DNA of 64,000 nt from the NCBI GenBank assembly GCA_965209035.1, contig OZ242372.1, positions 64,001-128,000 of the forward strand. Direction: 5' to 3'. Under the pieces are notes generated by a model. The model saw only the letters and a program-made list of their open reading frames with translations. It ran no database searches and was not told the origin of the DNA. The position numbers were made by a program, and so were the translations under genes. Below, piece by piece: positions 2,209 through 21,318 of the stretch. The stretch is from Gammaproteobacteria bacterium (lineage in GTDB: Bacteria; Pseudomonadota; Gammaproteobacteria; CBDBNL01; JAAOII01). Each line of letters starts with the position of its first letter. Within the stretch, counting starts at the first letter, position 1.

Positions 2209-2259
2209 TTTTAATCCTCGGTGTCGTTCATCGTTTTTTTGCTGCTAAACATCCAAACA

Positions 2260-3138
2260 TCAATACTCCATTTCGTGCCTTGATAAGTGTTGCGGCAATC
2301 CTATAATCTGCACATCAAACTTAAGGGAAGGTGTTACCTTGCTCTCTGCGTTGTGTATTCTAAAGGACATTTGCCAACCCTTATCAAAATAGTACATAAG
2401 CGTTGTTTTGGAAGATTGTGTATGCTGTGCTATAGTAGATGGAAGGGATAATTTTTTACCCCATTTAAGAGTGCGGTTGATATTGAAGGATTGAATGACC
2501 GCCTTGCCGTTCTCTTTCGCTACTTTGTAGAAGTCATAATACCCCAATAAATAATGCAGTAGGTTTTTCGGCACATTATCCTTATCCATAGCATAAATGC
2601 GTTGCATTTCCAAGTTGAAGGCGTGCAATATCGGCACATAAAATCGGTCCTCTTTATCGGGTATATCTCGCCATAATTGATTTCTCTTCTTTCGGCTGCG
2701 CATTTGTTCAAACAAAGGCACGACTGCATCCCAATATTCTTGCGATACATTATGCCCCAACCATTTTTTGCCAAAATCTATTTTGTCTGACAGTCGAGGA
2801 TTCTTAACTCCAAAATGTCTGTTTTTTGCCGATATTCCTATTTCTTCCCCGGGCGTTTCAATAATCAGGTCTCTTACATCCCCCTTGCCGCCCTCTTGGT
2901 CTGATTGCATTCTGACCGTGCAATGTTGTTGTTTTATTCTTGTGTCGTGTCCGATCAGAAAGATGACAATTTTCTCGGCGGCCTTCATGATCTTATCCCG
3001 CTCTGCATCACTACACCGGTTGAAATAAGAGCGACTATTTTCCAAATACCCGCTTTGCACCGGCGTGACCCCTGCTATCTTTTGCAGTTGGTATGCAATG
3101 CCGTACTCAAATCCCTTACCACTTTGTACTTGGCTCAA
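2260..3138 (-). CDS. HaeIII-family restriction endonuclease
   Basis: GKGFEY, QSD..G..GDVRD, IGISAKNRH..VK.PRLS..IDFG.KWLG and FRIHNA..KV.PSLKFD.Q are typical of the RE_HaeIII family. Confidence 0.85.
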   Translation of the reverse strand: MSQVQSGKGFEYGIAYQLQKIAGVTPVQSGYLENSRSYFNRCSDAERDKIMKAAEKIVIFLIGHDTRIKQQHCTVRMQSDQEGGKGDVRDLIIETPGEEIGISAKNRHFGVKNPRLSDKIDFGKKWLGHNVSQEYWDAVVPLFEQMRSRKKRNQLWRDIPDKEDRFYVPILHAFNLEMQRIYAMDKDNVPKNLLHYLLGYYDFYKVAKENGKAVIQSFNINRTLKWGKKLSLPSTIAQHTQSSKTTLMYYFDKGWQMSFRIHNAESKVTPSLKFDVQIIGLPQHLSRHEMEY

Positions 3139-4010
3139 GCGACCCTCTCCAAATCGTGAGACAGCACCACTATTTCGTTAGATTTTTTACTGTTCCCCAT
3201 TCCATATTTCCAGCCCGCCCTTAAGATTGGATAATCCTGATACCATTTTCTTATGGTAGGACAATCGTTATAGGATAGTATCCAGTTATCTCGTTGGTCC
3301 AGCAGTTCTTTTAGTGATTCGTGGTTGAACCCTGCGTGCGTATCTCCTTTCACCCCGTATAGTTTTTGCCCGTTAAGGTATGGCGGGTCAAGATAAAGAA
3401 AAGCATCCGGGTTATCGGCGATTGATTGCCGATAGTCCGCTTTCTTTACCGTAAAATTGTCTGTCGCAAACTCTCTTAGTTTCTCCATTGAACTTTGATT
3501 AAAACGGGGATGCCCTATGGACATACCGCCCGAGAGAGTAATCCCCGAAAATGACGACCGATTGAGCACATAAAATACCGCCGCCCGCTCTAAGGCATTT
3601 TCAAGCACGGGAAACCTTCGCTGCAAAGCATAGAATTGCGTTCTCTCCAACGGATGATATTCCTCTACCCTATCGGCCAGCTTATTGGGGTCATCTAACA
3701 GGCATTGCCAAAAGTCCACCAGCGGCGCAAATATATCATATCCCTTAACCTCCAGACCCGCCGCTACGCAAGCCAATTCAATGGAAGCCCCCCCTACAAA
3801 CGGGGAGCATACCACTTCAGTCTCATTCGGTATCAAAGGCAGTATCTGCGATACCGCTCTGCTTTTGCCACCCGGGTACCTCAAGGGAGAGCGCATATAT
3901 TGACCGGGTAGATCAACATCACCCACACAGGTATGCTGACGAATGGTTTGTACTCCGGCTTGATGTTCGAGATCTAAAATTTGTTGAGCGACCATAGTGT
4001 ATTTTGCCAA
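3135..4010 (-). CDS. Dam-like (D12 class, alpha) DNA adenine methyltransferase
   Basis: SPLRYPGGKS, PFVGGASI, YLDPPY and WILSYND motifs; 4-bp overlap with the REase. Confidence 0.9.
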   Translation of the reverse strand: MAKYTMVAQQILDLEHQAGVQTIRQHTCVGDVDLPGQYMRSPLRYPGGKSRAVSQILPLIPNETEVVCSPFVGGASIELACVAAGLEVKGYDIFAPLVDFWQCLLDDPNKLADRVEEYHPLERTQFYALQRRFPVLENALERAAVFYVLNRSSFSGITLSGGMSIGHPRFNQSSMEKLREFATDNFTVKKADYRQSIADNPDAFLYLDPPYLNGQKLYGVKGDTHAGFNHESLKELLDQRDNWILSYNDCPTIRKWYQDYPILRAGWKYGMGNSKKSNEIVVLSHDLERVA

Positions 4011-4086
4011 ACTATAATAATTTGTTCTATGTCTCTATTCTATTACGGCTTTAACAGAAAAAGGAAGTATTGCCATTCTCTACCAA

Positions 4087-4269
4087 TTATGGTTGAATGC
4101 CTGCTTGTCCAATAGAATTAGCATTTCTTTTTATGTCATCGATCTCACGTCTTACTTCGGATTCATTTGAACATACCTTTATTGCCGTGGCTACCGGTTG
4201 TCTTCCATTCATAAGCACCCAACGATAACCATCTTTAACCGGTTCTATAAGAAAATAATATTGCTGCAT
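4087..4269 (-). CDS. Small YegP/DUF1508-like protein
   Basis: 60 aa with pattern F.I....DG.YRW.L..NG...VA......N......I..IK.NA, typical of DUF1508. Confidence 0.6.
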   Translation of the reverse strand: MQQYYFLIEPVKDGYRWVLMNGRQPVATAIKVCSNESEVRREIDDIKRNANSIGQAGIQP

Positions 4270-4372
4270 AACTTGATTTATTTAATATGGTTAATTGTTA
4301 ATCTTTATTATAACTGGGTGCAACTAATAGATGTCAAACTTTTCTAAGATGATATTCCCCGCATCCGATACA

Positions 4373-4717
4373 TCATTTTCGGGTAGTTTCCCATTCGCGA
4401 AACTCAACGAAGCAGGTTATCGCTGCACTATATGTTCCGTGTCCCTTTCTTTCCTCGCCAATTTCTTCGTGTTCACCCCCTTTTTTGTATTTACAAGCGA
4501 TTTTCCTAAGTTGCTCTAAATCATTGATAAGGTATAAATCTGTAATTTTTGTTTCATGCTGAGACCAGTGTTTAGAAAGGATAAAAATTGACCTGGCATA
4601 ATCTTTAGCCGTCCCATTTGTGTAGTGTTCACCGTGTTTCCTTTTATTCCAGGCAATTGTTTTTAGATATTCTATAAACTTTCTGGCATGCTCGGTATCG
4701 TACTTGCTTGTCATCAA
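4373..4717 (-). CDS. Hypothetical single-domain protein, paralog of the N-terminal domain of 1297-2208
   Basis: Shared FI....T, HW...E, DLY.I.D...L..IA..Y...G..E..G and G.GT..AAI...V.FR. Confidence 0.7.
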   Translation of the reverse strand: MMTSKYDTEHARKFIEYLKTIAWNKRKHGEHYTNGTAKDYARSIFILSKHWSQHETKITDLYLINDLEQLRKIACKYKKGGEHEEIGEERKGHGTYSAAITCFVEFREWETTRK

Positions 4718-4925
4718 TATTGAAATCAGTGATTTGATAAATGCCGTGTTTCTTTCATTTGGTTATTTTACTATTTATGCTCCTTCTCACCGCCCCACTC
4801 TTACATCTATACTAGTATTGGTGCATAATTGCATAATCTCAAAACAGATCTACTTCACTTACAATAAGGCATTAAATATCAAAACTTAACTACTTATTTT
4901 AATTTTTACCAAAGGAGTATTTCAA

Positions 4926-5408
4926 ATGCAACAAGAAATAAAAGATTATGTCACGGCTCTGGCAAGTTTTCTTGTCAAGAACAAGAAAAAGATGTCTTAT
5001 AAAGATCTAATTCAACACTTACGATTTAATGATATTTTGGAGTATAAGGAACCGATAGGTATCGGTCAAGGAATTGCTTCACTTTACCGTGGATTAATTA
5101 AAGAAGGCAAGGAAAAGGAGGCCGGTAATGTCGCTCTGGCCTTTTGTGGGCATAACAAAAAATATGCTTGGGATAAGGACGACCCCAAGATGTCCTTATA
5201 TCAAAAACAAGAAGGAATATGTGCCGGTTGCAATAAATTTTTTGTGCCCGGTAATCTCAGCGTAGACCATATAGTCCCCAAAGCCAAAGGAGGCTCGGAA
5301 GATTCAAAAAATCTCCAACTTCTTTGCCGTAGTTGCAATAGCATTAAAGGGGACCGCACTATGGACTATCTAAAAGAACAGTTAACAGCCAAAGGCTACA
5401 ACAAATAA
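4926..5408 (+). CDS. HNH endonuclease fused to an N-terminal helical domain of unknown function
   Basis: C-terminal CAGC...VDHIVPKAKGG....NLQLLCRSCNSIKG (McrA-type HNH); AAGGAG RBS upstream. Confidence 0.88.
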   Translation: MQQEIKDYVTALASFLVKNKKKMSYKDLIQHLRFNDILEYKEPIGIGQGIASLYRGLIKEGKEKEAGNVALAFCGHNKKYAWDKDDPKMSLYQKQEGICAGCNKFFVPGNLSVDHIVPKAKGGSEDSKNLQLLCRSCNSIKGDRTMDYLKEQLTAKGYNK

Positions 5409-5493: not shown

Positions 5494-6729
5494 ATGACAT
5501 CATATAAAGGACTGTATCATGAAGCACTTTCGCGACTGGAAGACCTTAATAAAAAAATAGCAGATTTTCAAGAAACACAACAAGCTTGGGATACTCAAAA
5601 AAATAAACTACAAGAAGAATTAGAAGATAGCAAACATCTATTTCAACAACAACTAGATAGTAACAAGAAACAATTTCAACAGGCACAAGAAAATTGGGAA
5701 TCTCAAAAAAACCAACTACAAAAAGCATTAGAGAATAACGAGAATAAATTTCAACAAAAATTAAAGAATGACGAGAAGCAATTTCAACAGACACAAAAAG
5801 GCTGGAAGAATAAACATAATCAATTTCAACAAGAATTAGAGGATAATGAGAAGCAATTTCAACAGACACAAAAAGACTGGAATAATAAACATAATCAATT
5901 TCAACAAGAATTAAAGGGTAACGAGAAGAAATTTCAACAGACACAAAAAGACTGGGAATCTCAAAAAACCCAACTTCAACAAGAATTAGAGGATAGCAAG
6001 AATCAATTTCAACAAGAATTAGAGAATAAATTACAACAGGCTAGCCAAGATTTAGGAGATAAAGAAAAAGAGATAGACACATTCTTTGGCAAGATGAATG
6101 ATTTCTATGAGGGCGAAGAAATCGGTGAAATTATGGAGGATGGAAAAAAGAAAAGAACCGGGGGAATGAGAGGCAAGGTTAGTCTACTTCAAAAAGAATT
6201 CGAGGAATTGGTAGCAGATCGAACAAAGGAAGCTTTGGCAAAAATATTCGAGGAGCAAGCCGAGAAACATAAAAAGCGTTCCGATGTTGCTACGCTGTGG
6301 TTCAATAGTTCAATTATCGGATTAGTAGGTTTACTATTGGTGATTATCTCAGTTTTTGTATTTACAGAATTAACTTTTAATCTTTCTCTTTATCCTTTAT
6401 TTTCGATCGTAACTTTTGCTTCCGGATATCTTTTATTCCGTCTTAATAAAACTATTTCCGAAGAAACTCGTTTATTCACCGAATATACACACAAGCATTC
6501 TTTGGCAAAGGCATATACGGGATATAAAAAAGAAGCGGAAGGGAACGAGGATTTGCGCCAAAAATTATTATCCGATTTGACCGATGCCATCGCCCAAAAC
6601 CCTGTTCGTCTCTTATCAATTATCCACTCAAAAGAAAAAAACCCGCATCAAGAATTCGTGGATGGTATAAAAAAGACTGCTAAGTCCGCCAAACGACAAG
6701 TGAAAATACCCGGAATGGATTCGGATTGA
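5494..6729 (+). CDS. Long coiled-coil protein with two C-terminal transmembrane helices
   Basis: Q/E/K-rich heptads with 25-aa repeats, two hydrophobic segments, then a EY.HK.SLA.AY.GYK motif. Confidence 0.8.
   Translation: MTSYKGLYHEALSRLEDLNKKIADFQETQQAWDTQKNKLQEELEDSKHLFQQQLDSNKKQFQQAQENWESQKNQLQKALENNENKFQQKLKNDEKQFQQTQKGWKNKHNQFQQELEDNEKQFQQTQKDWNNKHNQFQQELKGNEKKFQQTQKDWESQKTQLQQELEDSKNQFQQELENKLQQASQDLGDKEKEIDTFFGKMNDFYEGEEIGEIMEDGKKKRTGGMRGKVSLLQKEFEELVADRTKEALAKIFEEQAEKHKKRSDVATLWFNSSIIGLVGLLLVIISVFVFTELTFNLSLYPLFSIVTFASGYLLFRLNKTISEETRLFTEYTHKHSLAKAYTGYKKEAEGNEDLRQKLLSDLTDAIAQNPVRLLSIIHSKEKNPHQEFVDGIKKTAKSAKRQVKIPGMDSD
5745..6030 (+). repeat. 75-bp (25-aa) tandem repeat, about 3.5 copies
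   Basis: Unit QFQQELEDNEKQFQQTQKDWNNKHN; aatttcaaca recurs at 75-bp period. Confidence 0.85.
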
Positions 6730-6736
6730 TTAGGCG

Positions 6737-7411
6737 GTGACAAACAAAAAGTTAAAGTTGGAGAATATCCTATGGCATCGCAAGTATCCTCAGATCATTC
6801 CGTATATCGGCTCCAAATATAAAGAGAAACGATTGTTATTGATCCTTGAAAGTCATTTTCTACCTGATGAAAGTAAAATTCACTTGGATCCGAAAGCTTG
6901 GTATGAAGGCGATGAATCACTTTTGAGTGAGGAAGAAAAAGGGTGGATATACACCAAGAAAACTATGAGAGGTCATGCCCTTTCACAACCCCAAAATACG
7001 GCGATACCAAAAGTTTATAAAGCAATAGAAGAAACCCGGCTATTCTCAAACTCAGATACAGATAAGGAAGATCCTTTTCCGTATTTTGCTCTGATGAACT
7101 ATTTTGTAAGGCCTGCTATATGTGGCAAAGGAATGGAACGAAGTTATGATAAAGAAGAGATATGGAAACATGATGTTGAACCGGCTAACGAAAGGCTGGA
7201 AAAAGTCGTTGAGATTTTAAAGCCTAAGGGAGTTATCTTTTTATCCTGCTTTGCGTATGACTGTTGCAATGACAGTGGTGGAATCTCCAAACTGAAAACA
7301 AGAGTGGGAGAAGATAAAGTGAGCCGTCAGTATCATCCCAGTTCCAGGGACTGGGATACAAAAGAAAAAGAAGAGTTTCAGCAATGTTTGCGTTCTTTTT
7401 GGAATTTATAA
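6737..7411 (+). CDS. Uracil-DNA glycosylase-superfamily-like protein
   Basis: N-terminal PYIG..Y...RLLLILESH, central NYF.RP, LKP..VIF and C-terminal HPSS match UDG-like motif A/B spacing. Confidence 0.65.
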   Translation: MTNKKLKLENILWHRKYPQIIPYIGSKYKEKRLLLILESHFLPDESKIHLDPKAWYEGDESLLSEEEKGWIYTKKTMRGHALSQPQNTAIPKVYKAIEETRLFSNSDTDKEDPFPYFALMNYFVRPAICGKGMERSYDKEEIWKHDVEPANERLEKVVEILKPKGVIFLSCFAYDCCNDSGGISKLKTRVGEDKVSRQYHPSSRDWDTKEKEEFQQCLRSFWNL

Positions 7412-7432
7412 AACCAGTAAAAAAATAAAGCT

Positions 7433-8362
7433 ATGAAAAAAATAATGTTATCTTTATTATCAGTGTTAACAGTATTATCATTACCACTATTACTATTAGT
7501 GTCTTGGCTGAATGTATTTCCTCTCTTAAGAATGATAAGTTTATTCTTCATAGCCACACTATTATTCGACAGCGATGAATTTTTTATAGTAGGACTAATA
7601 GCAATTTGGAGTTTCGTTCCTGCGTTCTGGTCTGTTACAAAAGGATATACTCTTTCCAGTGGTTGGTCTGTTGCATTTTTAATTACTTGTTTTTTTACCT
7701 TTATTGCCTTGAGTGTACATGACCCTTTTAGAAGTATTGCTTTATTTGTTGGTTTTCTTACTCCAATGATTATCAATTGGGTCTATCCAAATTATAATTC
7801 TGACCCTGTTAATAATTTTTTCTTGACAGATGAATCAAAGGAAAATATTTCTGCGGAAGTAAATGCAGGCATTATGATTAATATGCGACGCGGTGCTTAT
7901 CTTGGTCTCTGGGCTGGGTTAATGATTGGCTGGGGAATTCCTCTCTTTATATTTCTGTTGATTTCATGGTATTCACTTGATGAATTCGCTTATTATTACT
8001 ATGAGTATGAGGCTGTCGGTGCCTCTCTTATCCTTGCTCCCTTTGGCTTCGTGCTCTTTGGAGGTTTGCTCGGTGGTCTATTTCGCCCCCCTTTGGCTTG
8101 GTATGTGACTTGGATGACCGGGAGAATGCTGGGGGCACTTTTTATGTTTCTTATATTCTATAAGTTCCCTTCTTTGAAGCAAAGAGTGGCACTGGTTGGT
8201 GCGATTTCTGGTGTGATCTCTGGTGGGGTGCTGGCAGGGATTATCTCGCTGACAGAACAAGATGGTATCGGATATGTTTTTATCGTTATAATTTTCTGCT
8301 CGCTTCTAGGGTTTGCATTCGGGAAACTTACCGAATACATCGCTAAGCGTCGTGGTTGGTAG
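7433..8362 (+). CDS. Polytopic membrane protein, unknown function
   Basis: About 8-9 hydrophobic Gly-rich segments in 309 aa. Confidence 0.75.
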   Translation: MKKIMLSLLSVLTVLSLPLLLLVSWLNVFPLLRMISLFFIATLLFDSDEFFIVGLIAIWSFVPAFWSVTKGYTLSSGWSVAFLITCFFTFIALSVHDPFRSIALFVGFLTPMIINWVYPNYNSDPVNNFFLTDESKENISAEVNAGIMINMRRGAYLGLWAGLMIGWGIPLFIFLLISWYSLDEFAYYYYEYEAVGASLILAPFGFVLFGGLLGGLFRPPLAWYVTWMTGRMLGALFMFLIFYKFPSLKQRVALVGAISGVISGGVLAGIISLTEQDGIGYVFIVIIFCSLLGFAFGKLTEYIAKRRGW

Positions 8363-8470
8363 ATACAGTGACTCTTTCTATATCTTGCAATATAATAATC
8401 TTTTTACAAAGGTCACTAAATTAGGGGATAACTTAGCAGCTAAACTCAAAGAATCTCCCCATAGCATCTG

Positions 8471-8866
8471 TTAATCCACTCTTGTTGCATTTGCAACAAG
8501 AAAGTCCCGGCACCGGACAAACCGCCCTCTGCGTATCCAATAATGGCATTGATATTTGCAGAAAGATTGCATACCCCGTATGGAAGGGTCTAAACTGATA
8601 GTTCCCTTTTTCCACCACCTATGGATCCTTAATCGCCAACGAGGATCCAAACTTGCGTGCACATCCACATAAATGATCTGCCGGCAATCGGCATACGGAC
8701 ATTTGTAGGCAACTTGAAAGGGTTCTCCCCGCTTACCGAGGAGATACATTTTATTTTGCTCCAACTTGGACGGCAAATCCGTCACCTCAACTGCTTCGTA
8801 ATAATGCCATCTTTGTTGTAAACGCTTTTTAAGTAATCCAAAAGATGCAATGATTTTACTAAGCAT
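8471..8866 (-). CDS. DUF6527-family Cys/His-rich protein
   Basis: CP..DC...I......PRW......ISL.PSI......C..HYWIRRG motif; last gene of the Ubl operon, 8-bp overlap. Confidence 0.8.
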   Translation of the reverse strand: MLSKIIASFGLLKKRLQQRWHYYEAVEVTDLPSKLEQNKMYLLGKRGEPFQVAYKCPYADCRQIIYVDVHASLDPRWRLRIHRWWKKGTISLDPSIRGMQSFCKYQCHYWIRRGRFVRCRDFLVANATRVD

Positions 8867-10367
8867 AATTTAGCAGTTCGCTCTTGTCGCCCATCGCCCG
8901 ATATTTATCAAAGATCTCTTTTTTAGGAGAACAATTGGCGTGAGCATAGTAGCCGTTGGATAAACTGAATCTCTGAGATTCAAAATCTCTGTTGTCATCG
9001 AATCGAAACCTATGCAAGCGGGCTAAAAAATCATTGACCGCCATGCATGCTGCCTGCATATTCACCGAGATAACTGCCGGTTGATCCTCGTTCACAGCGG
9101 CTAAGTACCCGACCTTTCTTTGTTCCGCATAGTGTTTTCGATCGGTATGATAATAATCTTCGGCAGCCAGTTGTTCCGAAGTATAAACGCCGCGTGTTAG
9201 TAGCCCGGGACCTAAAGGGCTGACATAGTGGGCCGCCATGTCTATTCCCAGGATCTCTCCTTTTTTGTCACCTTCGCTGCTATCTCTAACATCCCCAATA
9301 TCACCACCGTCTCCAACCGCCCCGGCTTCCCCAACTTCCCCGACTTCTATGTGAACTCCGACATCAAAAAGTGGAATTGCATATGCCGAGGCAATCACAT
9401 CCAAGTGATATCGCCCTCTTACCGAATCCACACAACCGAACAGGACATCACAGGTTTTCAAACTGTCTTTTACCGCGGGTGATGTTGTTGTATCATTCAA
9501 TAATTCAACTTGGGTGCCCATACCCATTTCTTTAATTGCCCTGCCGATGACTTGCACTTTGGAGCGAGAGGCGGCGGCGTCTTTTTTGCCGCTGTTTAAT
9601 ATGCGGTTTAGATTTTTATCTTCTATCACATCATCATCTGCCAACACCAACTTGCCGATACAGTTTCTTGCCAAGAGTTCAATCACAATACTGCCGGTGC
9701 CGGAGCAGCCGACCACTCCTATTTTTAGTTGGCGTAAAACATCCAAGGTCCCTTTACCAAAAGTTTGTAAAATTCTCTTGGTAAATGCCGGCTCCTTGTT
9801 CCTGCCCTTGCTCCACTCTTTGTTACCTCTTTTCCAGAAAAACAGATCCTCGCCGCAGGCGGATACGGATTGAATGGGCACAAACCGCCGAGAATGAGTG
9901 ACAATACGCGCGATGATTTCACCTGTCGGCAGCATGATGGCGGAGCCTAACGGGCGTTTATCATCAAACCAGTGATTGGCGGACGCAAAGAACAATTTAT
10001 CGTTGGTATCATCCGTTGTTGAAAAATGCCGGAACCCGGACGGATGGCTGTGTATCGTCAAAAAAGAAAGACCTTGCTTGTCCATATCGGTTATTAGTTC
10101 GGGGGTGATTACATTCTTGGTTGCCCATTCAAGATAGGTGGCGTCGCGCTGAGTGGATTGAGCATACGGAACCAAGATGAGCGAATGTGTAACCAAGCGA
10201 CAGCAATCTTTGGCATCACCTCTGTGGCAGAGTAATATGGCGGCGGCTTCCGCCCCGTCTGCCGGTAGTAAATGCTTTTTTAAGTCCGTATGCTGTTTTT
10301 CATTTAGAACTAACTGATAAGTTTTAGTTGCTTTTGACATGTCTTCAAGATTGACCTTCTCGGTCAA
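8859..10367 (-). CDS. JAB/MPN peptidase - ThiF/E1 fusion (BubCD-like)
   Basis: N-terminal EAAA...HSHP....FS.TDD..D (JAB); C-terminal VGCSGTGS, D.D.IEDKNLNR, GCVD and PAVISVN (E1 adenylation domain). Confidence 0.9.
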   Translation of the reverse strand: MTEKVNLEDMSKATKTYQLVLNEKQHTDLKKHLLPADGAEAAAILLCHRGDAKDCCRLVTHSLILVPYAQSTQRDATYLEWATKNVITPELITDMDKQGLSFLTIHSHPSGFRHFSTTDDTNDKLFFASANHWFDDKRPLGSAIMLPTGEIIARIVTHSRRFVPIQSVSACGEDLFFWKRGNKEWSKGRNKEPAFTKRILQTFGKGTLDVLRQLKIGVVGCSGTGSIVIELLARNCIGKLVLADDDVIEDKNLNRILNSGKKDAAASRSKVQVIGRAIKEMGMGTQVELLNDTTTSPAVKDSLKTCDVLFGCVDSVRGRYHLDVIASAYAIPLFDVGVHIEVGEVGEAGAVGDGGDIGDVRDSSEGDKKGEILGIDMAAHYVSPLGPGLLTRGVYTSEQLAAEDYYHTDRKHYAEQRKVGYLAAVNEDQPAVISVNMQAACMAVNDFLARLHRFRFDDNRDFESQRFSLSNGYYAHANCSPKKEIFDKYRAMGDKSELLNYA

Positions 10368-10755
10368 GAACTTCCTTCATATTGTTAATATGAGTTCCGA
10401 TATTATCAACGCCTGCTTGCCATGGATAATGCCGAGACCATCGCTGCCACTTTTTATTTAAATGTGTTTCTGATACTAAAGCGTTTATAGGCCGATTATT
10501 TGTTTTCCGGATGCCCGGGTAAAGATAAAACATATCCAAACGTGCTGTAGGATAGTTAGGCGGAATAATAAACATAAATTCCCTCGTGTTGTGTTGATCC
10601 GACAACTCCACGGGAAATGATAACCACTGATATCCATCAGGAATATCAAAATTCCGAATGATCAGATACGAATTACTTCCTTCGGAAACTAATTCCCAAG
10701 CATCCGGATAGTGGATATTAAGCCATTCCAGGTCTTCGGATGTTAACGGACTCAA
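10345..10755 (-). CDS. Prokaryotic E2 (Prok-E2_E / BubB-like), cysteine-free
   Basis: IP.GY, IP..YP...LDMFY..P and WQRWSRH..W..G.D.I.TH; no Cys anywhere in the protein. Confidence 0.85.
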   Translation of the reverse strand: MSPLTSEDLEWLNIHYPDAWELVSEGSNSYLIIRNFDIPDGYQWLSFPVELSDQHNTREFMFIIPPNYPTARLDMFYLYPGIRKTNNRPINALVSETHLNKKWQRWSRHYPWQAGVDNIGTHINNMKEVLDREGQS

Positions 10756-10765
10756 ACTTAATTTC

Positions 10766-11071
10766 TTATCCCTGTTGTATCTGCGTTCGTATTGTTTCGA
10801 ATCTTTCCGGACAAGGATACTTAACCAGATCTACTCTATCTTCCGGGTTGATTCTATTGCGAGTTCCATCACTCAACTTTTCTTGTAAATAATACTCGTT
10901 AACTGGTCTGCGTGCTAAGGTCAGTATTTCCTTCCCTGTTATAGTAGGTTTTTCAACTTGATAGTATTTGCCATCTACTTTGATAATGTAAGCACGTCCA
11001 AAATACGGCTTCTTGCCTTCTTTCGCACATTCTTCGAGATTAATAATATCGTTTTTTTCTTGTTCTGTCAT
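10766..11071 (-). CDS. Ubiquitin-like (multi-ubiquitin family) protein
   Basis: I.VD...Y.V....ITG.EIL.LA......Y.L.....G....I...D.VDL......ERF.T beta-grasp pattern; ends in Gly (IQQG). Confidence 0.85.
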   Translation of the reverse strand: MTEQEKNDIINLEECAKEGKKPYFGRAYIIKVDGKYYQVEKPTITGKEILTLARRPVNEYYLQEKLSDGTRNRINPEDRVDLVKYPCPERFETIRTQIQQG

Positions 11072-11073
11072 AA

Positions 11074-12450
11074 TTAATTAATGTCGTTCTTTAATGGTTT
11101 AAAAATCTTAGGATTATTCTTTCGCAGTTCTTTTACGTGATCAGCATCTAACCCTATAACATTATACAAACATTTTGCCTTTGCTAACTGTGCCAGTGTC
11201 AAATTCTGACACCCGGTAAAATCAGAGCCGGTAAAATCAGAATCACTTAAATCTGCCCCCTTAAAATTTGCATCTCTAATATTTAAAAAAGTGATGCGTA
11301 CTCCTTTCAATTTCGCTTTTACAAATCCTGCACCGGATAAATTTCCTCCGGAACTAATATTAATACCACTTAAATCTGCTTTGAAAAAATTTATGCCTGA
11401 CAGATCTGAAGGTAACTTGACTTTTTCCAAGTATACCTCAGACATATCAATTCCAAGAAGGGTTGCTGTGATAGTAACTTCTTTATTTTCGTCCCGTACT
11501 TTCTTGTTTTCTCTATACATTTGCATTATTGATTTAGGATCTATAGACGGCTTAAAAAAGAGATCAATAATCAATTGTTTTATTTCAATAGCATCATCTT
11601 TTGAAAATATTGGTATAGACTTAGACATAGATATCTTGTCATATCCAGCCCTTTCCATTGTTATCGATGAATTTTCAATAGTAATTTTTTTATTTTTATC
11701 CTCTGCTTTCTTATTTATTGATTTAAGGTCTATAGATGGCTTAAAAGAGAGGTTAATATCCCATGGTTTTATTTCAAAAATATCTTTTTTCGTTATCGGT
11801 GCATTTTCAAATGAATTTAATATCTTAATCACTAAACTCATAATAATTGAAGTGTAATCTTGTGGTTCGCGTATATGATTTTTAGTGTCTTCTCTATACT
11901 TGTCGTTCGTTTTATAGGCAAGATCACGCAACATGAATAATCCCGCCTGTTGGTCAATATTCTTTTCAGAAGATAATTTATCTATTGCCTTATCAAATAT
12001 ATCAGATTTGATAGTCGCCAACTGCGTTTGTGCCGTATGTCCTTGTGCTATAGTCCTTCTATTGAGAATTGTCAATCCCCAAACAACTACTACCCCGGAT
12101 AGCATATAACCCAAAGCCATTAGGCTATGCCACTTTTTACCTTTATTCTCTTTACCCTCATTCTCTGCTGCTCCCAGCATCATATCTATCCAGTCATTGG
12201 GGCTACTATCGCACCAAAGAACATCAGACAATGCACGCCAGAGGATTAAAAAAATGATAAAGAGTGCAAAAGAAAGCAACAACCGCAAAAACATATTTCG
12301 CAAAAACACACTTAATGTGTGCCACCACTCTTTAAATGTATGCCACCCTTTTTTTAATCTGTGCCACCACTCTTTAAATGTGTGCCACCCTTTTTTTAAT
12401 CTGTGCCACCACTCTTTAAATGTGTGCCACCCTTTTTTAATAGCCCTCAC
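11074..12450 (-). CDS. Membrane-anchored pentapeptide-repeat protein
   Basis: Two TM segments and C-terminal A(D/N)LSG-type pentapeptide repeats; GGAGG 9 nt before the GTG; stop 2 bp from the Ubl ATG. Confidence 0.85.
   Translation of the reverse strand: MRAIKKGWHTFKEWWHRLKKGWHTFKEWWHRLKKGWHTFKEWWHTLSVFLRNMFLRLLLSFALFIIFLILWRALSDVLWCDSSPNDWIDMMLGAAENEGKENKGKKWHSLMALGYMLSGVVVVWGLTILNRRTIAQGHTAQTQLATIKSDIFDKAIDKLSSEKNIDQQAGLFMLRDLAYKTNDKYREDTKNHIREPQDYTSIIMSLVIKILNSFENAPITKKDIFEIKPWDINLSFKPSIDLKSINKKAEDKNKKITIENSSITMERAGYDKISMSKSIPIFSKDDAIEIKQLIIDLFFKPSIDPKSIMQMYRENKKVRDENKEVTITATLLGIDMSEVYLEKVKLPSDLSGINFFKADLSGINISSGGNLSGAGFVKAKLKGVRITFLNIRDANFKGADLSDSDFTGSDFTGCQNLTLAQLAKAKCLYNVIGLDADHVKELRKNNPKIFKPLKNDIN
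12318..12441. repeat. 42-bp tandem repeat x3 (KKGWHTFKEWWHRL)
   Basis: gtgccaccactctttaaatgtgtgccacccttttttt aatct repeated nearly exactly. Confidence 0.95.
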
Positions 12451-12534
12451 TGCATAAATCCTCCATACAAAATATTATAAGAAGTTAAATTATCTCATCC
12501 GATCCCCTACTCTCCGCAACTGCCTATTCATTAA

Positions 12535-13713
12535 TCACCCGTCCTCCAACAATTCTTCCGGCAGATCCCCCCGCATAAACCCCTCATAAGCATCCAGATC
12601 CGCAAAGTCAATCGCAAACAGGCCGTCCTCTAACTTGGTAATGCGGACGCTGTCGGTATTGGCTTTCAGTAGTTTGTCATAGGTCATCAGTTCCCGGTCT
12701 TTGAGATTAAATATGCCACGCAATAGCCACTTGGCGAGTGCATCGTTGGGGTTGGTCATCAGGGCTTTGCTGTTGTCTTGGCACATCTTGGCGTCGTAGA
12801 TCTCCCCTGTCGGCACCTTCAATCGAAAAGTGGTATCTCGGGGCGGGAAAAAGTCGCCGTATCTTTTGTGGATATCCCACGGCACCGGGATATAAACTTC
12901 GCCGGACTTTCGTTCTCGCCCGCGCGCATTCCATTGATTTAATCCGCTGTGTTGGGGGACATATTTTTCACCCCCTTTGATGACGGAGCGGGTGGAATAC
13001 AACGGCAAAATAACAAACGGCTCTTGCCGATAGGTTTTTTGGGGCTGAAGTTGGGCAAAACGCAACAACATTTCATAAGGGTCCTCAAGAATTTGTATAT
13101 CTATTTTGACAGCATCTGCGGGGATGTGAAAGGTCTTGAATAAAGTGCTTTTTGAAGGGTTGTAGTTATAGCGGTGCTTGCCGTCTTCAAACGAAACCCG
13201 TTTTGTATCTCTCGAAGTGGAATTTGAAGTGGGATTGTTTAATGTCAAAGAAGCGGTGTCTATCGGCTCGTATGTTTCGGAAAAAAGTAACAGATGCTTT
13301 TCCCGTCTTGCCACACAATGATAAAATCCTTGCCGGACGCCGTAAGTCCTGTTCGCCCATTCTATGCGGGCATTGCGATAGTCCGCCAGTGCCTTCACCA
13401 GCGTCATCCCTTGCATATCTCGCAAAGTGGTGCTGAGTTTGTTAAACTCGGCAACCTTTTCCGTTTTGTGCTCGCCCGGTGCCACAAAGGTTTTAATCCC
13501 TATGCCGGTGTTTCCCTTGATGGCGTCATATGCGCCGTCTTCTCTTGCCATGTTTTTTGCCGCAAAGGATTTGCAGGATACATTTTCCACCAATCGGTAA
13601 TAGAGCAGCGGGACCTTTGAGTCGCTGAACAACCGGGATAATGCGGATGACGCTCTCAGGTAATCGGCGTAAAGGCGAAATTCGTTGTTGTTATGATTTA
13701 AGAATTCTCGCAT
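12535..13713 (-). CDS. Restriction endonuclease with NgoFVII-type C-terminal DNA-binding domain
   Basis: N-terminal PD-(D/E)xK-like DA.K...GIGIKTF and EKVAEFN; C-terminal SGLNQWNA.GR.R...EVYIP, FFP and KALMTNPN. Confidence 0.78.
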   Translation of the reverse strand: MREFLNHNNNEFRLYADYLRASSALSRLFSDSKVPLLYYRLVENVSCKSFAAKNMAREDGAYDAIKGNTGIGIKTFVAPGEHKTEKVAEFNKLSTTLRDMQGMTLVKALADYRNARIEWANRTYGVRQGFYHCVARREKHLLLFSETYEPIDTASLTLNNPTSNSTSRDTKRVSFEDGKHRYNYNPSKSTLFKTFHIPADAVKIDIQILEDPYEMLLRFAQLQPQKTYRQEPFVILPLYSTRSVIKGGEKYVPQHSGLNQWNARGRERKSGEVYIPVPWDIHKRYGDFFPPRDTTFRLKVPTGEIYDAKMCQDNSKALMTNPNDALAKWLLRGIFNLKDRELMTYDKLLKANTDSVRITKLEDGLFAIDFADLDAYEGFMRGDLPEELLEDG

Positions 13714-14579
13714 ATACCCAGTTCCGCGGTTAATTCTTGTTTGATATGATTTATGCGCTCTTCACTTTGTTGGCAAAACTTTTTATTGAGTTCAAAACCT
13801 ATGTATCGTCTGCCGGTTTCCACGGCTGCAGCGGCGGTGGTTCCGCTGCCCATGAAGGGATCCAGGACAATATCGTTTTCCTTTGAGGTGGTTAGAACAA
13901 ACGGCCGAATCAATGACAAAGGATAAGATGCCTGATGGTCGCGGAAAGGTTCTATGCCGTTTTTGATGACATCCCGATGGTGTTGGTACTTCCGGGCGGT
14001 GTCCAAATCAAAATAGTATTTGGGGGACTTGACAAAATGAAAGAAGTGTTCGTACACGGGATAGCGTCTGTCCTTGGAATAGCTCGGAATCGGGTTTGGT
14101 TTTTCCCAGATGATCTTGTTGCGCAAGAGCCAGCCCTGCTCCTGCATCCCCATTGCCACCCTTTCCGGTAGCATCAAGAGTTGTTTGTGTTGCAGGTAAC
14201 GGCCGTCCGGTCGCACAATCTTATGCTCTTTATAGTGTTGGTCGGTTTTTCTGGCATATCGCCCTTTGTTGCGAACGAACCCTTTGGAGCCGAAGTAGAT
14301 GTCGCCGATATTCAAATAAAAGGACCCTTGCGGATGCAGGACACGCCGCAACTCGTCCATAAATTGAAGGAGATGTTTGACATAAGCCAGGGGATGTTCT
14401 TCCCGCCCGAGTGTTTCGTCCCCGTATACGCGACAACCGAAGTATGGCGGGCTGGTGATAATCAGGTTCACGAAGTCCTCCGGTAATTGAGAGGTCAATT
14501 CCAAAGAATCACCGCATATGATTTTATTGATCCATTTTTCAGTCATAGTCTGCCCCGCCTTGCAAATGTTTTGTATCAA
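13698..14579 (-). CDS. Site-specific DNA amino-methyltransferase (beta class, probably m4C)
   Basis: TSPPY ... DPFMGSGTT ... YIGFELN; overlaps the REase start. Likely ATG start at MTEKW. Confidence 0.92.
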   Translation of the reverse strand: MIQNICKAGQTMTEKWINKIICGDSLELTSQLPEDFVNLIITSPPYFGCRVYGDETLGREEHPLAYVKHLLQFMDELRRVLHPQGSFYLNIGDIYFGSKGFVRNKGRYARKTDQHYKEHKIVRPDGRYLQHKQLLMLPERVAMGMQEQGWLLRNKIIWEKPNPIPSYSKDRRYPVYEHFFHFVKSPKYYFDLDTARKYQHHRDVIKNGIEPFRDHQASYPLSLIRPFVLTTSKENDIVLDPFMGSGTTAAAAVETGRRYIGFELNKKFCQQSEERINHIKQELTAELGICENS

Positions 14580-16499: not shown

Positions 16500-17513
16500 T
16501 CAAGCGGGGGTTGATTGATTGGATGTTGATTTATTGGGTTTCGGTTCGAAAGGAACTTCGCCGATAATTTCTCGCCAAACGCGGTCCCCATAACAGGGAT
16601 GCCATTCGTCGTGTAATCTATCCCTGGAATCCGGATTAATTGAAATACTATTCTTATACGAAAATTGCAAATTAGTGCTTTTACTAACGCAATTTATCAT
16701 CCACTCCAAAGTGATGTCGGAAAGACCGGAATGCACATATCCTCCCCCGATATCACTGTGAACACCGCGAAACCATTCTTGAGCGAATGTGCACTTCTGC
16801 TGCGGATCCGGCTTCTCCCAGAGAGTGGGCAAAAACGTACGCCTTCTTTCATCCAATGCTACTGCGTGAAAAGCGCATTTTACTTTCGGGCTCAATTTCA
16901 CATCGTGGAATTGATAAGTGCTTATGGCATCGATGATTTCGCGATCAATAAAACCAAAATTAATGGCAGAAATATCTATAGAAGATATATTCGGAATCCC
17001 CAAGCTACCGACCGTGTCCCAAACACCGATGCAGGCAATATCATCGATATCTATATTACTGGCAAAGTTCTTCACTTGGTTACGATAAGAATTCCAACTT
17101 TTTTTTAGTGCCTCTTCTTTGAATACCTCTTCTTTGAAGGTCGGAATCCCTTGCCTTGCCAATAAACCACCCAAACTTCGTACCGTATAGGCTCCTCGCG
17201 AAAAGCCAAACAAGTATATTTCATCTCCCAGTTCGTAATGCTCGGCAATCACCCGATAACAATCCATGATATTCTTATTCAAGCCAAAACCAAAAATACC
17301 AGTGTATTGATCATACATATGTGTCCTAACCCCGGCGTGATAAAATACGATTTGTTCCACACCATCACTGGCTTCCCCCAAAATACGCAATGGCCGGCGT
17401 ATTGCTCTTCTTCCACAGAGTGCCTGATATATCTTGGCGACATTTGTTTGTTCACATACCTCTTCATCGGGTCTATTCCAAGTGCCGTCAGCACAAACAA
17501 CAATTCTTTTCAT
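16500..17513 (-). CDS. DUF2235 / Tle1-like alpha/beta hydrolase (phospholipase-type)
   Basis: MKRIVVC.DGTWN, GFSRGAY, IGVWDTV, HAVALDERR and WF.GVHSDIGGG. Confidence 0.9.
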   Translation of the reverse strand: MKRIVVCADGTWNRPDEEVCEQTNVAKIYQALCGRRAIRRPLRILGEASDGVEQIVFYHAGVRTHMYDQYTGIFGFGLNKNIMDCYRVIAEHYELGDEIYLFGFSRGAYTVRSLGGLLARQGIPTFKEEVFKEEALKKSWNSYRNQVKNFASNIDIDDIACIGVWDTVGSLGIPNISSIDISAINFGFIDREIIDAISTYQFHDVKLSPKVKCAFHAVALDERRRTFLPTLWEKPDPQQKCTFAQEWFRGVHSDIGGGYVHSGLSDITLEWMINCVSKSTNLQFSYKNSISINPDSRDRLHDEWHPCYGDRVWREIIGEVPFEPKPNKSTSNQSTPA

Positions 17514-17876: not shown

Positions 17877-19652
17877 CTATACTTTCAATTGTTTTTGTTC
17901 CAATGCAAAGGTTCTGTTACGAATTACCTCCCGGTTATCCGGGCTTATCCGCAGTGCTTTGTTATAGTCGTCGATCGCCGCGTCATATTGCTTTAATGCA
18001 AGTTTGGCATTTCCCCGGTGGAAGTATACTGTGGCGTATTCCGGGTTAATTTGTATGACACGATCATAATCGGCAATGGCCTGTTCATACTGCCCTAATT
18101 TAAACTTACTAAATCCTCGATTAGGGTATGCGTCCGTATATTCCGGATTAATTTCAAGGGCACAATTATAATCATCGATCGCCGCGTCATATTGCTTCAA
18201 TGCAAGTTTGGCATTTCCTCGGTGGAAGTATGTTGTGGCGTGTTCCGGATTAATTTTTATGGCACGATCATAATCGGCAATTGCCGCGTCATACTGCCCT
18301 AATTCAAACTTGGTAAATCCTCGATTGGAATATGCACCCGCATATTCCGGATTAATTTCAAGGGCACAATCATAATCGGCAATCGCCGCGTCATACTGCT
18401 TTAATGTAAGTTTAACAGTTCCTCTATTGAAGAATTTCTCCGTATTATGGGGATCAATTTGAACCGCGCGGTCATAATCGGCAAGAGCCTTTTCGTATTG
18501 TTTCAACTGGGCCCGGGTAGTCCCTCGATGGAAGTATGCGTCTGCATATCCCGGATTAATTTCAAGGACACGATCATAATCGGCAAGAGATTGTTTGTAT
18601 TGTTTCAACTGGGCATAGGTACTTCCCCGATTATGGTATGCATCTGCATATCTCGGATTAATTTCAATGGCACGATCATAATCAGCAAGAGACTGGGCAT
18701 ACTTCTGTAATTTAACCTTGGCATTTCCCCGAGTGAAATATGCTTCGGCGTACTCCGGATTAATTTTTATGACACGATCATAATCGGCAATCGCCTGTTC
18801 ATACAGTCCTAATTCAAACTTGATATTTCCCTGATCAAAGTATCCATCCTCATATTTCGAATTAATTGCAATGGCTAGCTCATACTGATGTAATTTAAAC
18901 TTAGCATGTTCCCGGTTGAAGTATGCGTCCATATATCCCGGATTAATTTCAATGGCACGATCATAATCGGCAATCGCCTGTTCGTATTGTTTCAACTGGG
19001 CATGAGCATTTCCCCGATTAAAGCATGCGTCCATATATCCCGGATTAATTTCAATGGCACGATCATAATCGGCAATCGCCTGTTCGTATTGCTTCAACTG
19101 GGCATGAGCACTTCCCCGATTGTTATATGCTTCCGCGTATCCCGGATTAAGTTCAAGGGCACGATCATCATCGGCAATAGCCTGTTCATACCGTTCTAAT
19201 TCAAACTTGGCGTGTCCCCGATTGGAGTATGCTTCAGCCGATGCAGGATTAAGTTGAATGACGCGGTCATAATCGACAAGAGCCTGTTCATACTGATTTA
19301 ATGTAAGTTTGACAGTTCCTCTATTGAATAATATCTCCGAGCTGTGAGGATCAATTTGAACGGCGCGGTCATAATCGGCAAGAGCCTGTACATATCTTTG
19401 TAATTCAAACTTGGCATTTCCGCGATTGTTATATGCTTCAGCCAATTCAGGATCAAATTGAATGGCACAGTCATAGTCGGCAATAGCCTGTTCATATTGT
19501 TTCAACAGGGCATAAACAGTTCCCCGATTGCTGTATGCCTCGGTATATTTTGGATCCTGTTCAATGGCTAGGCTATACTCTTTTATCGCACCCGGATAGT
19601 CCTGCTGTTGCCCAAGGGCGTTGCCTCTTTCAAAATACTCTTTTGCGGTCAT
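17877..19652 (-). CDS. All-TPR protein (about 17 repeats)
   Basis: 34-aa repeats AY.NRG.A...L.QYEQAIADYDRAI.INP; near-identical 102-bp DNA units. Confidence 0.95.
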   Translation of the reverse strand: MTAKEYFERGNALGQQQDYPGAIKEYSLAIEQDPKYTEAYSNRGTVYALLKQYEQAIADYDCAIQFDPELAEAYNNRGNAKFELQRYVQALADYDRAVQIDPHSSEILFNRGTVKLTLNQYEQALVDYDRVIQLNPASAEAYSNRGHAKFELERYEQAIADDDRALELNPGYAEAYNNRGSAHAQLKQYEQAIADYDRAIEINPGYMDACFNRGNAHAQLKQYEQAIADYDRAIEINPGYMDAYFNREHAKFKLHQYELAIAINSKYEDGYFDQGNIKFELGLYEQAIADYDRVIKINPEYAEAYFTRGNAKVKLQKYAQSLADYDRAIEINPRYADAYHNRGSTYAQLKQYKQSLADYDRVLEINPGYADAYFHRGTTRAQLKQYEKALADYDRAVQIDPHNTEKFFNRGTVKLTLKQYDAAIADYDCALEINPEYAGAYSNRGFTKFELGQYDAAIADYDRAIKINPEHATTYFHRGNAKLALKQYDAAIDDYNCALEINPEYTDAYPNRGFSKFKLGQYEQAIADYDRVIQINPEYATVYFHRGNAKLALKQYDAAIDDYNKALRISPDNREVIRNRTFALEQKQLKV

Positions 19653-19797
19653 GATCGATCTTGTTGGTAAACTCTTGGTGGGTAGTGTTGTGGTGAATAA
19701 CGAACTCGGTTAGTCCCTCGCTATTTCTTGCTCCTTTATATTTATATCTCTTTCTTCGCCTTTCGTATTCACTGCATGTTTTATCAAATGTTTTTTG

Positions 19798-21192: not shown

Positions 21193-21318
21193 GATTAATG
21201 TTCTTGGTAACAACTTGGTTGTGTTAGTGGTGAATAACACACTTGGTTAGTCCCTTGCTTTCCCCATTGTTTAAATTTTTGTCGAACATGTTTTATTATA
21301 CTTTTTAAGTTTTAGTAT

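Follow-up and report, generated by a model that had tools for sequence, protein, structure and literature searches.

Bacterial operons of the 6E/DUF6527 type were named Bub by Ye, Gong, Chambers and Corbett (PMC11601596). According to the available text of that paper, a tyrosine in the crossover loop of the E1 accepts the ubiquitin-like protein (Ubl), which is then handed to a serine of a cysteine-free E2, and cleavage of Ubl conjugates was shown for DUF6527, there called BubE, which is a Ser-His protease. The same text defines Type I Bub by a JAB-E1 fusion (BubCD) together with a Ubl-E2 fusion (BubAB) that is cut by the JAB domain, and gives Ser, His and Asp as the E2 site. Here we describe a five-gene cassette in a 64,000-nucleotide stretch of a gammaproteobacterial genome (assembly GCA_965209035.1, contig OZ242372.1, positions 64,001 to 128,000 of the forward strand; hereafter the window, with positions counted from its first letter). 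Judged by homology, the four downstream genes are a Bub (6E/DUF6527) pathway of the type already described. The first gene encodes a pentapeptide-repeat protein (PRP) with two predicted transmembrane (TM) helices, and homologues of this gene stand directly upstream of a Bub Ubl gene in three other loci. The best explanation, which we favour with moderate confidence, is a Bub pathway to which a member of a 2-TM PRP family was recruited, perhaps as a membrane-tethered specificity or recruitment factor.

The cassette consists of five minus-strand open reading frames (ORFs) packed into window positions 8471-12450, and the Pfam domain calls of all five genes exceed the curated cut-offs:

11074-12450, minus strand: PRP, 2-TM pentapeptide-repeat protein, 458 amino acids (aa) from a GTG start, first gene of the cassette (Pfam Pentapeptide, 8.4e-12)
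10766-11071, minus strand: BubA-type Ubl, 101 aa, one beta-grasp domain, C-terminal IQQG ending in Gly101 (Pfam Multi_ubiq, 7e-9)
10345-10755, minus strand: BubB-type E2, 136 aa (Pfam Prok-E2_E, 2.1e-24)
8859-10367, minus strand: BubCD, JAB-E1 fusion, 502 aa (Pfam Prok-JAB, 1.8e-5, and ThiF, 2.4e-25), with the JAB peptidase at aa ~30-124 and the E1 adenylation domain at aa ~199-340 and beyond
8471-8866, minus strand: BubE (DUF6527, PF20137), 131 aa (Pfam DUF6527, 5.1e-10)

The PRP and Ubl genes are separated by 2 bp and the Ubl and E2 genes by 10 bp, while E2 and JAB-E1 overlap by 23 bp and JAB-E1 and DUF6527 by 8 bp. An earlier note on this DNA, made from the sequence alone, had given the same coordinates and spacing.

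The relatives of the cassette were collected by scanning one genome per species with a BubCD alignment, and the best 80 of 182 matches form our set of Bub loci; ORFs in them were called by a longest-ORF rule and their starts are approximate. A profile search of all ORFs in these 80 loci found PRP-family members only in loci L027 and L066, in both with the pentapeptide domain confirmed, and the PRP genes there overlap the called Ubl ORF, taken from its longest start codon, by 4-14 bp. A metagenome scan for the PRP gave a single match, the 1720-bp contig L092. The stop of its PRP gene overlaps an ATG, from which 12 codons can be read up to the contig end, and 10 of these 12 match the N-terminus of the L027 Ubl. 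All four close-subfamily PRP genes with visible downstream DNA (window, L027, L066 and L092) directly precede a Bub Ubl. The earlier note had proposed a candidate new subtype. This proposal gains support from L027, L066 and L092, in each of which the gene immediately before the Ubl encodes a homologous 2-TM PRP, with the E1s in one clade.

The window, L027 and L066 have exactly these five genes in common and share nothing else in about 6 kb on each side. Upstream of the PRP we find a restriction endonuclease (REase) in the window, an Eco57I-type methylase and a lipase in L027, genes on the opposite strand in L066, and in L092 an ORF that, judged by eye alone, looks like the C-terminal end of an HsdS-like (type I specificity) subunit. 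Between the window and L027 the proteins are 47% (E1), 45% (Ubl), 43% (E2), 35% (BubE) and 30% (PRP) identical; between L027 and L066 the values are 69, 57, 61, 60 and 39%, respectively. The PRP diverges in parallel with the other cassette genes, and it does so fastest. A 79-row E1 tree joins the window with L027, L066, L031 and L090 (Shimodaira-Hasegawa-like approximate likelihood ratio test, SH-aLRT, 97). A 57-row tree contains a 29-row set (SH-aLRT 99) made up of the window, two near relatives, L090 and a 25-row clade, which holds L027 and L066 on different sub-branches. The GC content at third codon positions (GC3) also sets the PRP (0.32) with the Ubl (0.31) and the E2 (0.37), followed by BubE (0.43) and the E1 (0.48), apart from the upstream restriction-modification (RM) pair with 0.57. 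The loci L027 and L066 have a GC content of 0.30 and 0.33 and belong to low-GC genomes.

As far as profile similarity tells, the PRP itself is a member of a wide and unnamed family of 2-TM PRPs, in which its close subfamily is small. When 5.8 billion proteins were searched by words, only two full-length homologues came up, P0002 and P0003, with 70-74% identity in the alignment. The N-terminal module alone (TM hairpin plus linker), run as a profile against 1.84 billion representatives, gave 1696 matches at E<=1e-3, 207 at <=1e-10 and 11 at <=1e-30. The close subfamily, represented by the 11 matches with E below 1e-30, is linked to Bub wherever its context is visible. Twelve more distant 2-TM PRP genes (9 loci, 9 genomes) have no Bub gene within 15-20 kb. 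Because the close members are linked to Bub and the distant ones are not, a specific offshoot of the family appears to have been recruited into one Bub branch. Three of the distant genes (L102, L103 and L104, from three genomes of one order) adjoin purL, the gene for FGAR amidotransferase, a conserved housekeeping neighbourhood. A scan of viral contigs with the PRP alignment found no relative, and a protein atlas search with the PRP returned generic pentapeptide clusters only.

The assignment of the four downstream genes to Bub is carried by alignments to solved proteins. The Ubl matches PDB entry 9cd2 (the ZDHYS365 multi-ubiquitin protein) at 1.7e-6, and its terminal glycine, G101, is aligned in 78/78 sequences. 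The E2 contains no cysteine, carries WSRH at aa 106-109 and the site residues D74, S107 and H109, and aligns to Citrobacter BubB (9eae) at 1e-11 with its WSRH and LDMFY motifs in register; WSRH including S107 is present in 79/79 aligned E2s, and D74, S107 and H109 are kept in 77-79 of the 79. The JAB-E1 fusion aligns to Citrobacter BubCD (9ea4) at 6.3e-69. In this alignment E40, H106, H108, D119, R255 and Y421 of the window protein correspond to the published E28, H91, H93, D104, R227 and Y370, where the chain numbering of 9ea4 is that of the paper plus 2 (checked on the JAMM motif and R227; chain Y372 is the published Y370). These six catalytic-site residues are invariant in 26/26 aligned E1s. 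Y395 had been considered as the catalytic tyrosine and was ruled out when the alignment to the solved BubCD pointed to Y421. In BubE the C4 site (C56, C61, C103 and C107) together with S95 and H108 is kept in 70-73 of 73 aligned sequences; S95 and H108 were equated with Citrobacter S92 and H102 by motif order only. All published Bub catalytic residues are retained in the window proteins.

The earlier note had recognized a Bub-type pathway in which the JAB is fused to the E1 and the E2, of the Ser type, lacks cysteine and keeps WSRH, and Pfam and the Citrobacter alignments bear this out. Two of its observations stand with a changed meaning. The E1 indeed has no CxxC motif, and no cysteine at residues 313-440, the span that covers the crossover region; this is not its key feature, since the enzyme acts through the crossover-loop tyrosine (Y421). 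The E1 is a single adenylation domain resembling that of BubCD. The DUF6527 domain was likewise confirmed by Pfam, with a function that was already known, as it is the Ser-His protease BubE in the available text of PMC11601596. BubE has a hydrophobic N-terminus, which may touch membranes as the authors suggest in that text. PADLOC gave no match for the PRP, Ubl, E2 or BubE of the window and only weak E1-E2 matches for the E1, with a release older than the Bub papers. Just before the E1 crossover loop lies a low-complexity insert rich in Gly, Asp and Glu (window 9270-9350, aa ~343-368, with 9- and 18-bp repeats). It is shorter in the related E1s P0011 and P0012 and absent from the other 23 aligned E1s, and one contig from the source sample skips 45 nt at this position.

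With respect to the published types, the window shows the Type I features of a JAB/JAMM domain fused to the E1 and an E2 with S107, H109 and D74. The BubAB fusion of Type I is absent: the Ubl has a stop after Gly101, a 10-bp gap follows, and the E2 is read in another frame. The E2-E1 fusion (BubBD) of Type II is absent too, as the E2 stands alone in an ORF of 136 aa and the JAB domain is part of the E1 protein. The gene content is hence Type I-like with separate Ubl and E2 genes. The earlier note had described the operon correctly and had not flagged this separation, which departs from the Type I definition and yet is the majority form: the two genes are split in 56 of the 77 related loci in which both are seen and fused in 21, three further loci being cut by contig ends. 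It follows that the published Type I definition, with its BubAB fusion, is too narrow for this large clade, which is found mostly with sponge symbionts.

The split also bears on the JAB domain. Among the split Ubl ORFs 21/56 end exactly in Gly, and 35/56 have extra residues after it, mostly tails of 1-5 residues. Since the window Ubl ends at Gly101 with neither a fusion partner nor a tail, and the JAB site is intact, it is a fair inference, made already in the earlier note, that the JAB domain here probably also trims conjugates. Against this weighs the suggestion, made in the available text of PMC11601596, that JAB may serve mainly to cut BubAB. An intact JAB that is retained although the Ubl needs no processing, as in the 21 split relatives with an exact Gly end, bears directly on the question of a JAB role beyond BubAB cutting.

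The PRP gene and protein have the following features:

12474-12479, minus strand: TATAAT upstream of the PRP gene, read from the sequence
12459-12464, minus strand: Shine-Dalgarno (SD)-like GGAGGA, 8 nt before the PRP GTG at 12450, read from the sequence
12312-12438, minus strand: 42-bp tandem repeat, 3.0 copies, 97% matches (Tandem Repeats Finder), encoding a Trp/Lys-rich 14-aa unit at the PRP N-terminus
12238-12294, minus strand: TM helix 1, aa 53-71 (Kyte-Doolittle mean 2.57, 19-residue window)
12067-12123, minus strand: TM helix 2, aa 110-128, followed by NRR (hydropathy 1.96)
11170-11406, minus strand: pentapeptide beta-helix, aa ~349-427 (Pfam/NCBIfam stretches; AlphaFold2 confidence, pLDDT, 84-92 over ~350-450)

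From its N-terminus the protein runs through the Trp/Lys-rich part, two hydrophobic helices, a long and partly low-complexity linker, a short pentapeptide beta-helix and a helical cap. Its place among the pentapeptide-repeat proteins is clear (Pfam 44.9 bits, cut-off 20.2), and the two hydrophobic segments agree with the earlier description of a membrane-anchored protein with two TM helices. In the family alignment the 14-aa unit is present as a single copy in the relatives, and G114, Y115 and R132 are invariant. The charges are unevenly distributed, with 13 K+R against 3 D+E before TM helix 1, 5 against 7 in the 38-aa loop and NRR after TM helix 2. From this distribution we infer that the N-terminus and everything after TM helix 2, including the beta-helix, would be cytoplasmic. 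The linker contains a 76-nt direct repeat (11526-11601 and 11715-11790, 80% identical, 189 nt apart), corresponding to an internal duplication of about 63 aa that is absent from P0002 and P0003.

A public protein database calls the PRP as a 406-aa protein from Met53, after the 42-bp repeat. We favour the 458-aa form because GGAGGA stands 8 nt before the GTG at 12450. The Ubl start follows 2 nt after the PRP stop and has no evident SD sequence of its own. A promoter and terminator scan of the region did not rise above chance (18 promoters with 14.1 expected, 11 terminators with 7.6 expected).

The AlphaFold2 model of the window PRP, built from a 5-row alignment, has a mean pLDDT of 55, and its usable parts are only the N-terminal helix and the beta-helix with its regular strand pattern. 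The homologue from L027, modelled from a 12-row alignment, reaches a pLDDT of 83.4 and is predicted as a TM hairpin, a four-helix linker, a beta-helix and a cap. Solved structures matched this model over the beta-helix only; they comprise synthetic solenoids, Np275/276, HetL, MfpA, AlbG and Qnr and, more weakly, NleL. A complex predicted from alignments of the E2, the Ubl and the PRP (residues 130-458) scored 0.01, a value obtained without controls that counts neither way.

From the observed gene content, conserved catalytic residues and recurrent linkage, activities in this organism and a role for the PRP can be proposed, the Bub steps after the homologous system characterised in Citrobacter. 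The E1 domain of BubCD would adenylate the C-terminal Gly of the Ubl and take the Ubl onto Tyr421 as an oxyester. The Ubl would then pass to Ser107 of the cysteine-free E2, aided by His109 and Asp74, and from there to target amines. BubE would remove conjugates through Ser95 and His108, probably joined by the JAB domain in trimming them. The PRP would be co-transcribed with the Ubl gene, with probable translational coupling. As a membrane-tethered specificity or recruitment factor it may either bind, with its cytoplasmic beta-helix, the protein to be tagged or be itself the tagged anchor, and in this way place conjugation at the inner membrane, where the hydrophobic end of BubE may act as well. 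The earlier note had thought of the PRP as a possible sensor, adaptor or substrate. We favour a recruitment role at the membrane because the PRP is the fastest-evolving member of the cassette and would be co-expressed with the Ubl, because BubE has its hydrophobic N-terminus, and because NleL is an E3 ligase that carries a pentapeptide helix.

Several points weigh against this reading. The available text of PMC11601596 and PMC13373217 states that none of the Bub operons has so far protected its host from phage and that the targets are not known; in both, as in the earlier note, the function of Bub is left unresolved. The linked loci are four in number, all derived from metagenomes, and one of them shows only 12 Ubl codons. 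The E1s nearest to that of the window, P0011 (93%) and P0012 (88%), are recorded on contigs that differ in length from those of the nearest PRP relatives, P0002 and P0003. Both E1 trees are quick searches with long branches for the window and L090. L031, which is nested in the same E1 clade, has a CapH/CapP pair in place of the PRP, and the genomes of L031 and L090 gave no PRP-family match; the PRP is therefore dispensable. A tightly abutting same-strand ORF upstream of the Ubl (ending -30 to +60 nt from its start) is present in 22 of 75 evaluable loci, namely 13 PIN-like, 2 PRP, 2 GmrSD-like and 5 singletons. The tight packing, to which the earlier note had pointed, is consequently real and weak as evidence, since most of these upstream genes are unrelated defence genes. 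Finally, a module of a methylase, an ATPase and a PIN-like protein stands directly upstream of Bub in 17 of the 80 loci and likewise clusters on the E1 tree. As this module is co-inherited although it is probably a separate system, the co-inheritance of the PRP alone is no proof of a joint function.

These points lend themselves to another account, in which the PRP is a mere neighbour: a membrane protein with a job of its own that became fixed beside Bub in one ancestor and has since travelled along in a defence-island block. The methylase/NsnB-like ATPase/PIN-like module, which is equally tight and co-inherited in its 17 loci, has its own PADLOC match and is plausibly independent, sets a precedent for such an arrangement, and so do the varied families, including GmrSD and AAA_21, among the 22 tight upstream ORFs. 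The wider 2-TM PRP family has other neighbourhoods, such as that of purL in three genomes, and L031 does without a PRP; both facts fit this account too. Yet everything further upstream differs between the four loci, in each of which the PRP precedes the Ubl. The linkage has also survived divergence down to 30% PRP identity and transfer between phyla, and the window Ubl start lacks its own SD sequence. We regard the neighbour account as the strongest competitor, tenable although the balance of evidence leans away from it.

The recruitment reading can be sharpened to the proposal that this Bub branch has in the PRP a membrane partner of its own, either a receptor that selects what gets tagged or an anchor that is itself tagged. 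We put this forward tentatively, as a possible rather than a probable assignment. If true, Bub conjugation in this branch would be localised to the membrane, for instance where phage DNA enters or where the envelope is under stress, and the PRP would offer the first concrete handle on Bub targets and on the biological role of the pathway.

Small TM effectors act in CBASS and Pycsar systems, and by comparison with these the PRP might be an effector whose 2-TM hairpin and Trp/Lys helix oligomerise upon Ubl conjugation or release and damage the inner membrane, leading to abortive infection. The hairpin, the interfacial-type Trp/Lys-rich N-terminal helix (three copies of the unit in the window) and the lack of an obvious effector in the Bub operons otherwise described in the available text of PMC11601596 speak for this idea. 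However, 78 of the 80 Bub loci have no PRP gene, and distant relatives with the same TM hairpin occur in housekeeping contexts (purL), which argues against an inherently toxic module; we consider the effector role improbable.

The last alternative concerns the two genes that lie directly upstream of the cassette on the same strand and are given here as context only:

12535-13713, minus strand: type II REase (PADLOC REase_II, 8.7e-114)
13698-14579, minus strand: N4/N6 methyltransferase (MTase) (Pfam N6_N4_Mtase, 4e-47)

That the PRP belongs to this RM pair, for example as a DNA-mimic regulator of the nuclease, is very improbable: it does follow the REase gene on the same strand after 84 bp, RM-type genes also stand upstream in L092 (the HsdS-like fragment) and L027 (the Eco57I-type methylase), and pentapeptide proteins can mimic DNA, with MfpA and Qnr among the fold matches, but the RM genes are of unrelated types across the three loci, L066 has none upstream, a lipase gene intervenes in L027, the GC3 of the PRP (0.32) departs from that of the pair (0.57), and the PRP has its own SD sequence after the 84-bp gap.

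The pair is part of an RM-rich island, as the earlier note had said. At window positions 314-5408 we find a HaeIII-type REase, a Dam-type methylase, a second N4/N6 methylase, a DUF4145 protein and an HNH protein. The window genome is small (2.24 Mb in 2 contigs). BubCD had a match in 0 of 30 related genomes and the full-length PRP in 0 of 60, and the five-gene block looks horizontally acquired on this account; the absence from related genomes fits such an origin and shows nothing more. Direct repeats bounding the cassette were not found in its flanks.

Metagenome reads and contigs of the source sample contain variants of the locus that are about 90% identical, and a 503-nt contig from this sample covers the PRP-Ubl junction. 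In contigs of variant strains, and in reads from another sample, breaks fall at the edges of the five-gene block: at 8460, which is 11 nt beyond the stop codon of BubE, and at 12503-12570, shortly before the PRP gene. Two reads of run X4 connect 12647 directly with 8460. These metagenome data, of very low depth and at 85% likeness, are no more than a hint that the five genes may move together.

Convergent on the cassette, the plus strand at 5494-8362 carries three genes without Pfam families. They encode a 411-aa Gln/Lys-rich coiled-coil protein with C-terminal TM segments, which has weak ZorA/JetC coiled-coil matches only, a 224-aa protein and a 309-aa multi-TM protein. Further away, at 16500-17513 and 17877-21240, a protein with a Tle1-like phospholipase domain (7.3e-72) adjoins two large TPR-repeat proteins.

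The other neighbours of Bub are varied. The module mentioned above, found in 17/80 loci from several phyla, consists of a type III-like methylase (~860 aa), an NsnB/PDC-M55A-like AAA ATPase (~430 aa) and a PIN-like protein (~180 aa), all upstream on the same strand. Loci with this module include L011, L016, L017, L019, L020, L022, L023, L026, L028, L030, L035, L036, L054 and L087, and module and Bub may be a super-operon that is conserved, or else two defence systems that travel together. A divergent CapH/CapP-like pair (HTH_3 and Peptidase_M78) lies upstream of Bub in 11/80 loci and two unknown genes in 4/80, while others have GmrSD, AAA_21 or further families. The best 80 BubCD loci stem nearly all from metagenome-assembled genomes of more than 10 phyla. 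The named taxa among them are sponge-associated (Poriferihabitans, Spongiihabitans, Porisulfidus, Tethybacter) or belong to phyla common in sponges. Since the E1 tree cuts across host taxonomy, it suggests that Bub cassettes have been much exchanged within the sponge-associated habitat.

As far as we have seen, the linkage of the PRP to Bub is new, the Bub core is known, and the split of Ubl and E2 is common in this clade and unlike the published Type I. The word 'pentapeptide' is absent from the main text of the Bub literature that we searched, in line with the remark in the earlier note that the PRP is no known Bub component. The linkage was not found in the main text of Bub-related literature; supplementary operon lists (544 operons) lie outside this search and may record the PRP or the split genes. 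Nor was it found in the available text of papers that combine pentapeptide repeats with anti-phage defence, and among the papers listed for pentapeptide repeats together with the Bub Pfam names all were unrelated. Bub is biochemically solved and biologically blank, and a fast-evolving membrane protein encoded beside the Ubl suggests where to look: at a candidate partner and at the inner membrane.

How does the locus compare with known systems? With the DNA mimics MfpA, Qnr and AlbG the PRP shares the right-handed quadrilateral beta-helix fold. These are soluble dimers of about 200 aa that act on gyrase, whereas the PRP has a membrane anchor, a helical linker and 458 aa, and it scores 17.4 bits with the NCBIfam Qnr model against a cut-off of 240. 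With the HECT-like E3 ligases NleL and SopA it shares a pentapeptide beta-helix tied to ubiquitin-type conjugation, and the NleL chains 3naw and 3sqv match the PRP-family model at ~1e-5 and the profile at 2e-9. The pentapeptide helix of NleL has a substrate-binding role. In NleL and SopA, however, the helix is fused to a HECT-like domain within a secreted effector that works with host ubiquitin, while the PRP is a separate membrane protein without a catalytic domain. The closest likeness of the PRP is to the wide 2-TM PRP family, with its TM hairpin and KW...GY...NRR signature, helical linker, beta-helix and C-terminal cap; unlike the window PRP, the 12 distant members do not stand beside Bub, and three of them stand beside purL.

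For the conjugation genes, the Bil (bacterial ISG15-like) systems resemble the window in having an operon of Ubl, E2, JAB and E1 without an E3 gene (Bil as given in the available text of PMC11601596). They use Cys thioesters, an E1 of the IAD-AAD-CYS type and a separate JAB, and an antiphage role and a phage tail target were shown for them, none of which applies to the window, where the E2 has no Cys and the E1 has a single adenylation domain. Type II Bub shares with the window BubA, BubE and, by homology, the oxyester chemistry, and the window Ubl matches 9cd2. In Type II, according to the available text of PMC11601596, the E2 is fused to the E1 and its site consists of Ser, Lys and His, and a JAB is usually missing; the window has a free E2, a JAB domain and Ser, His and Asp. 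No CapW, CapH/CapP or CapK/CapS-type regulator was seen next to the window cassette. The cassette is most like the characterised Type I Bub of Citrobacter, with which it shares the JAB-E1 fusion, the cysteine-free E2 with Ser-x-His and Asp, BubE, the Gly end of the Ubl and the crossover tyrosine. It differs from this system in that its Ubl has one beta-grasp domain instead of three, in that Ubl and E2 are separate genes, so that no JAB cleavage is needed to expose Gly101, and in that an extra gene, for the 2-TM PRP, heads the operon.

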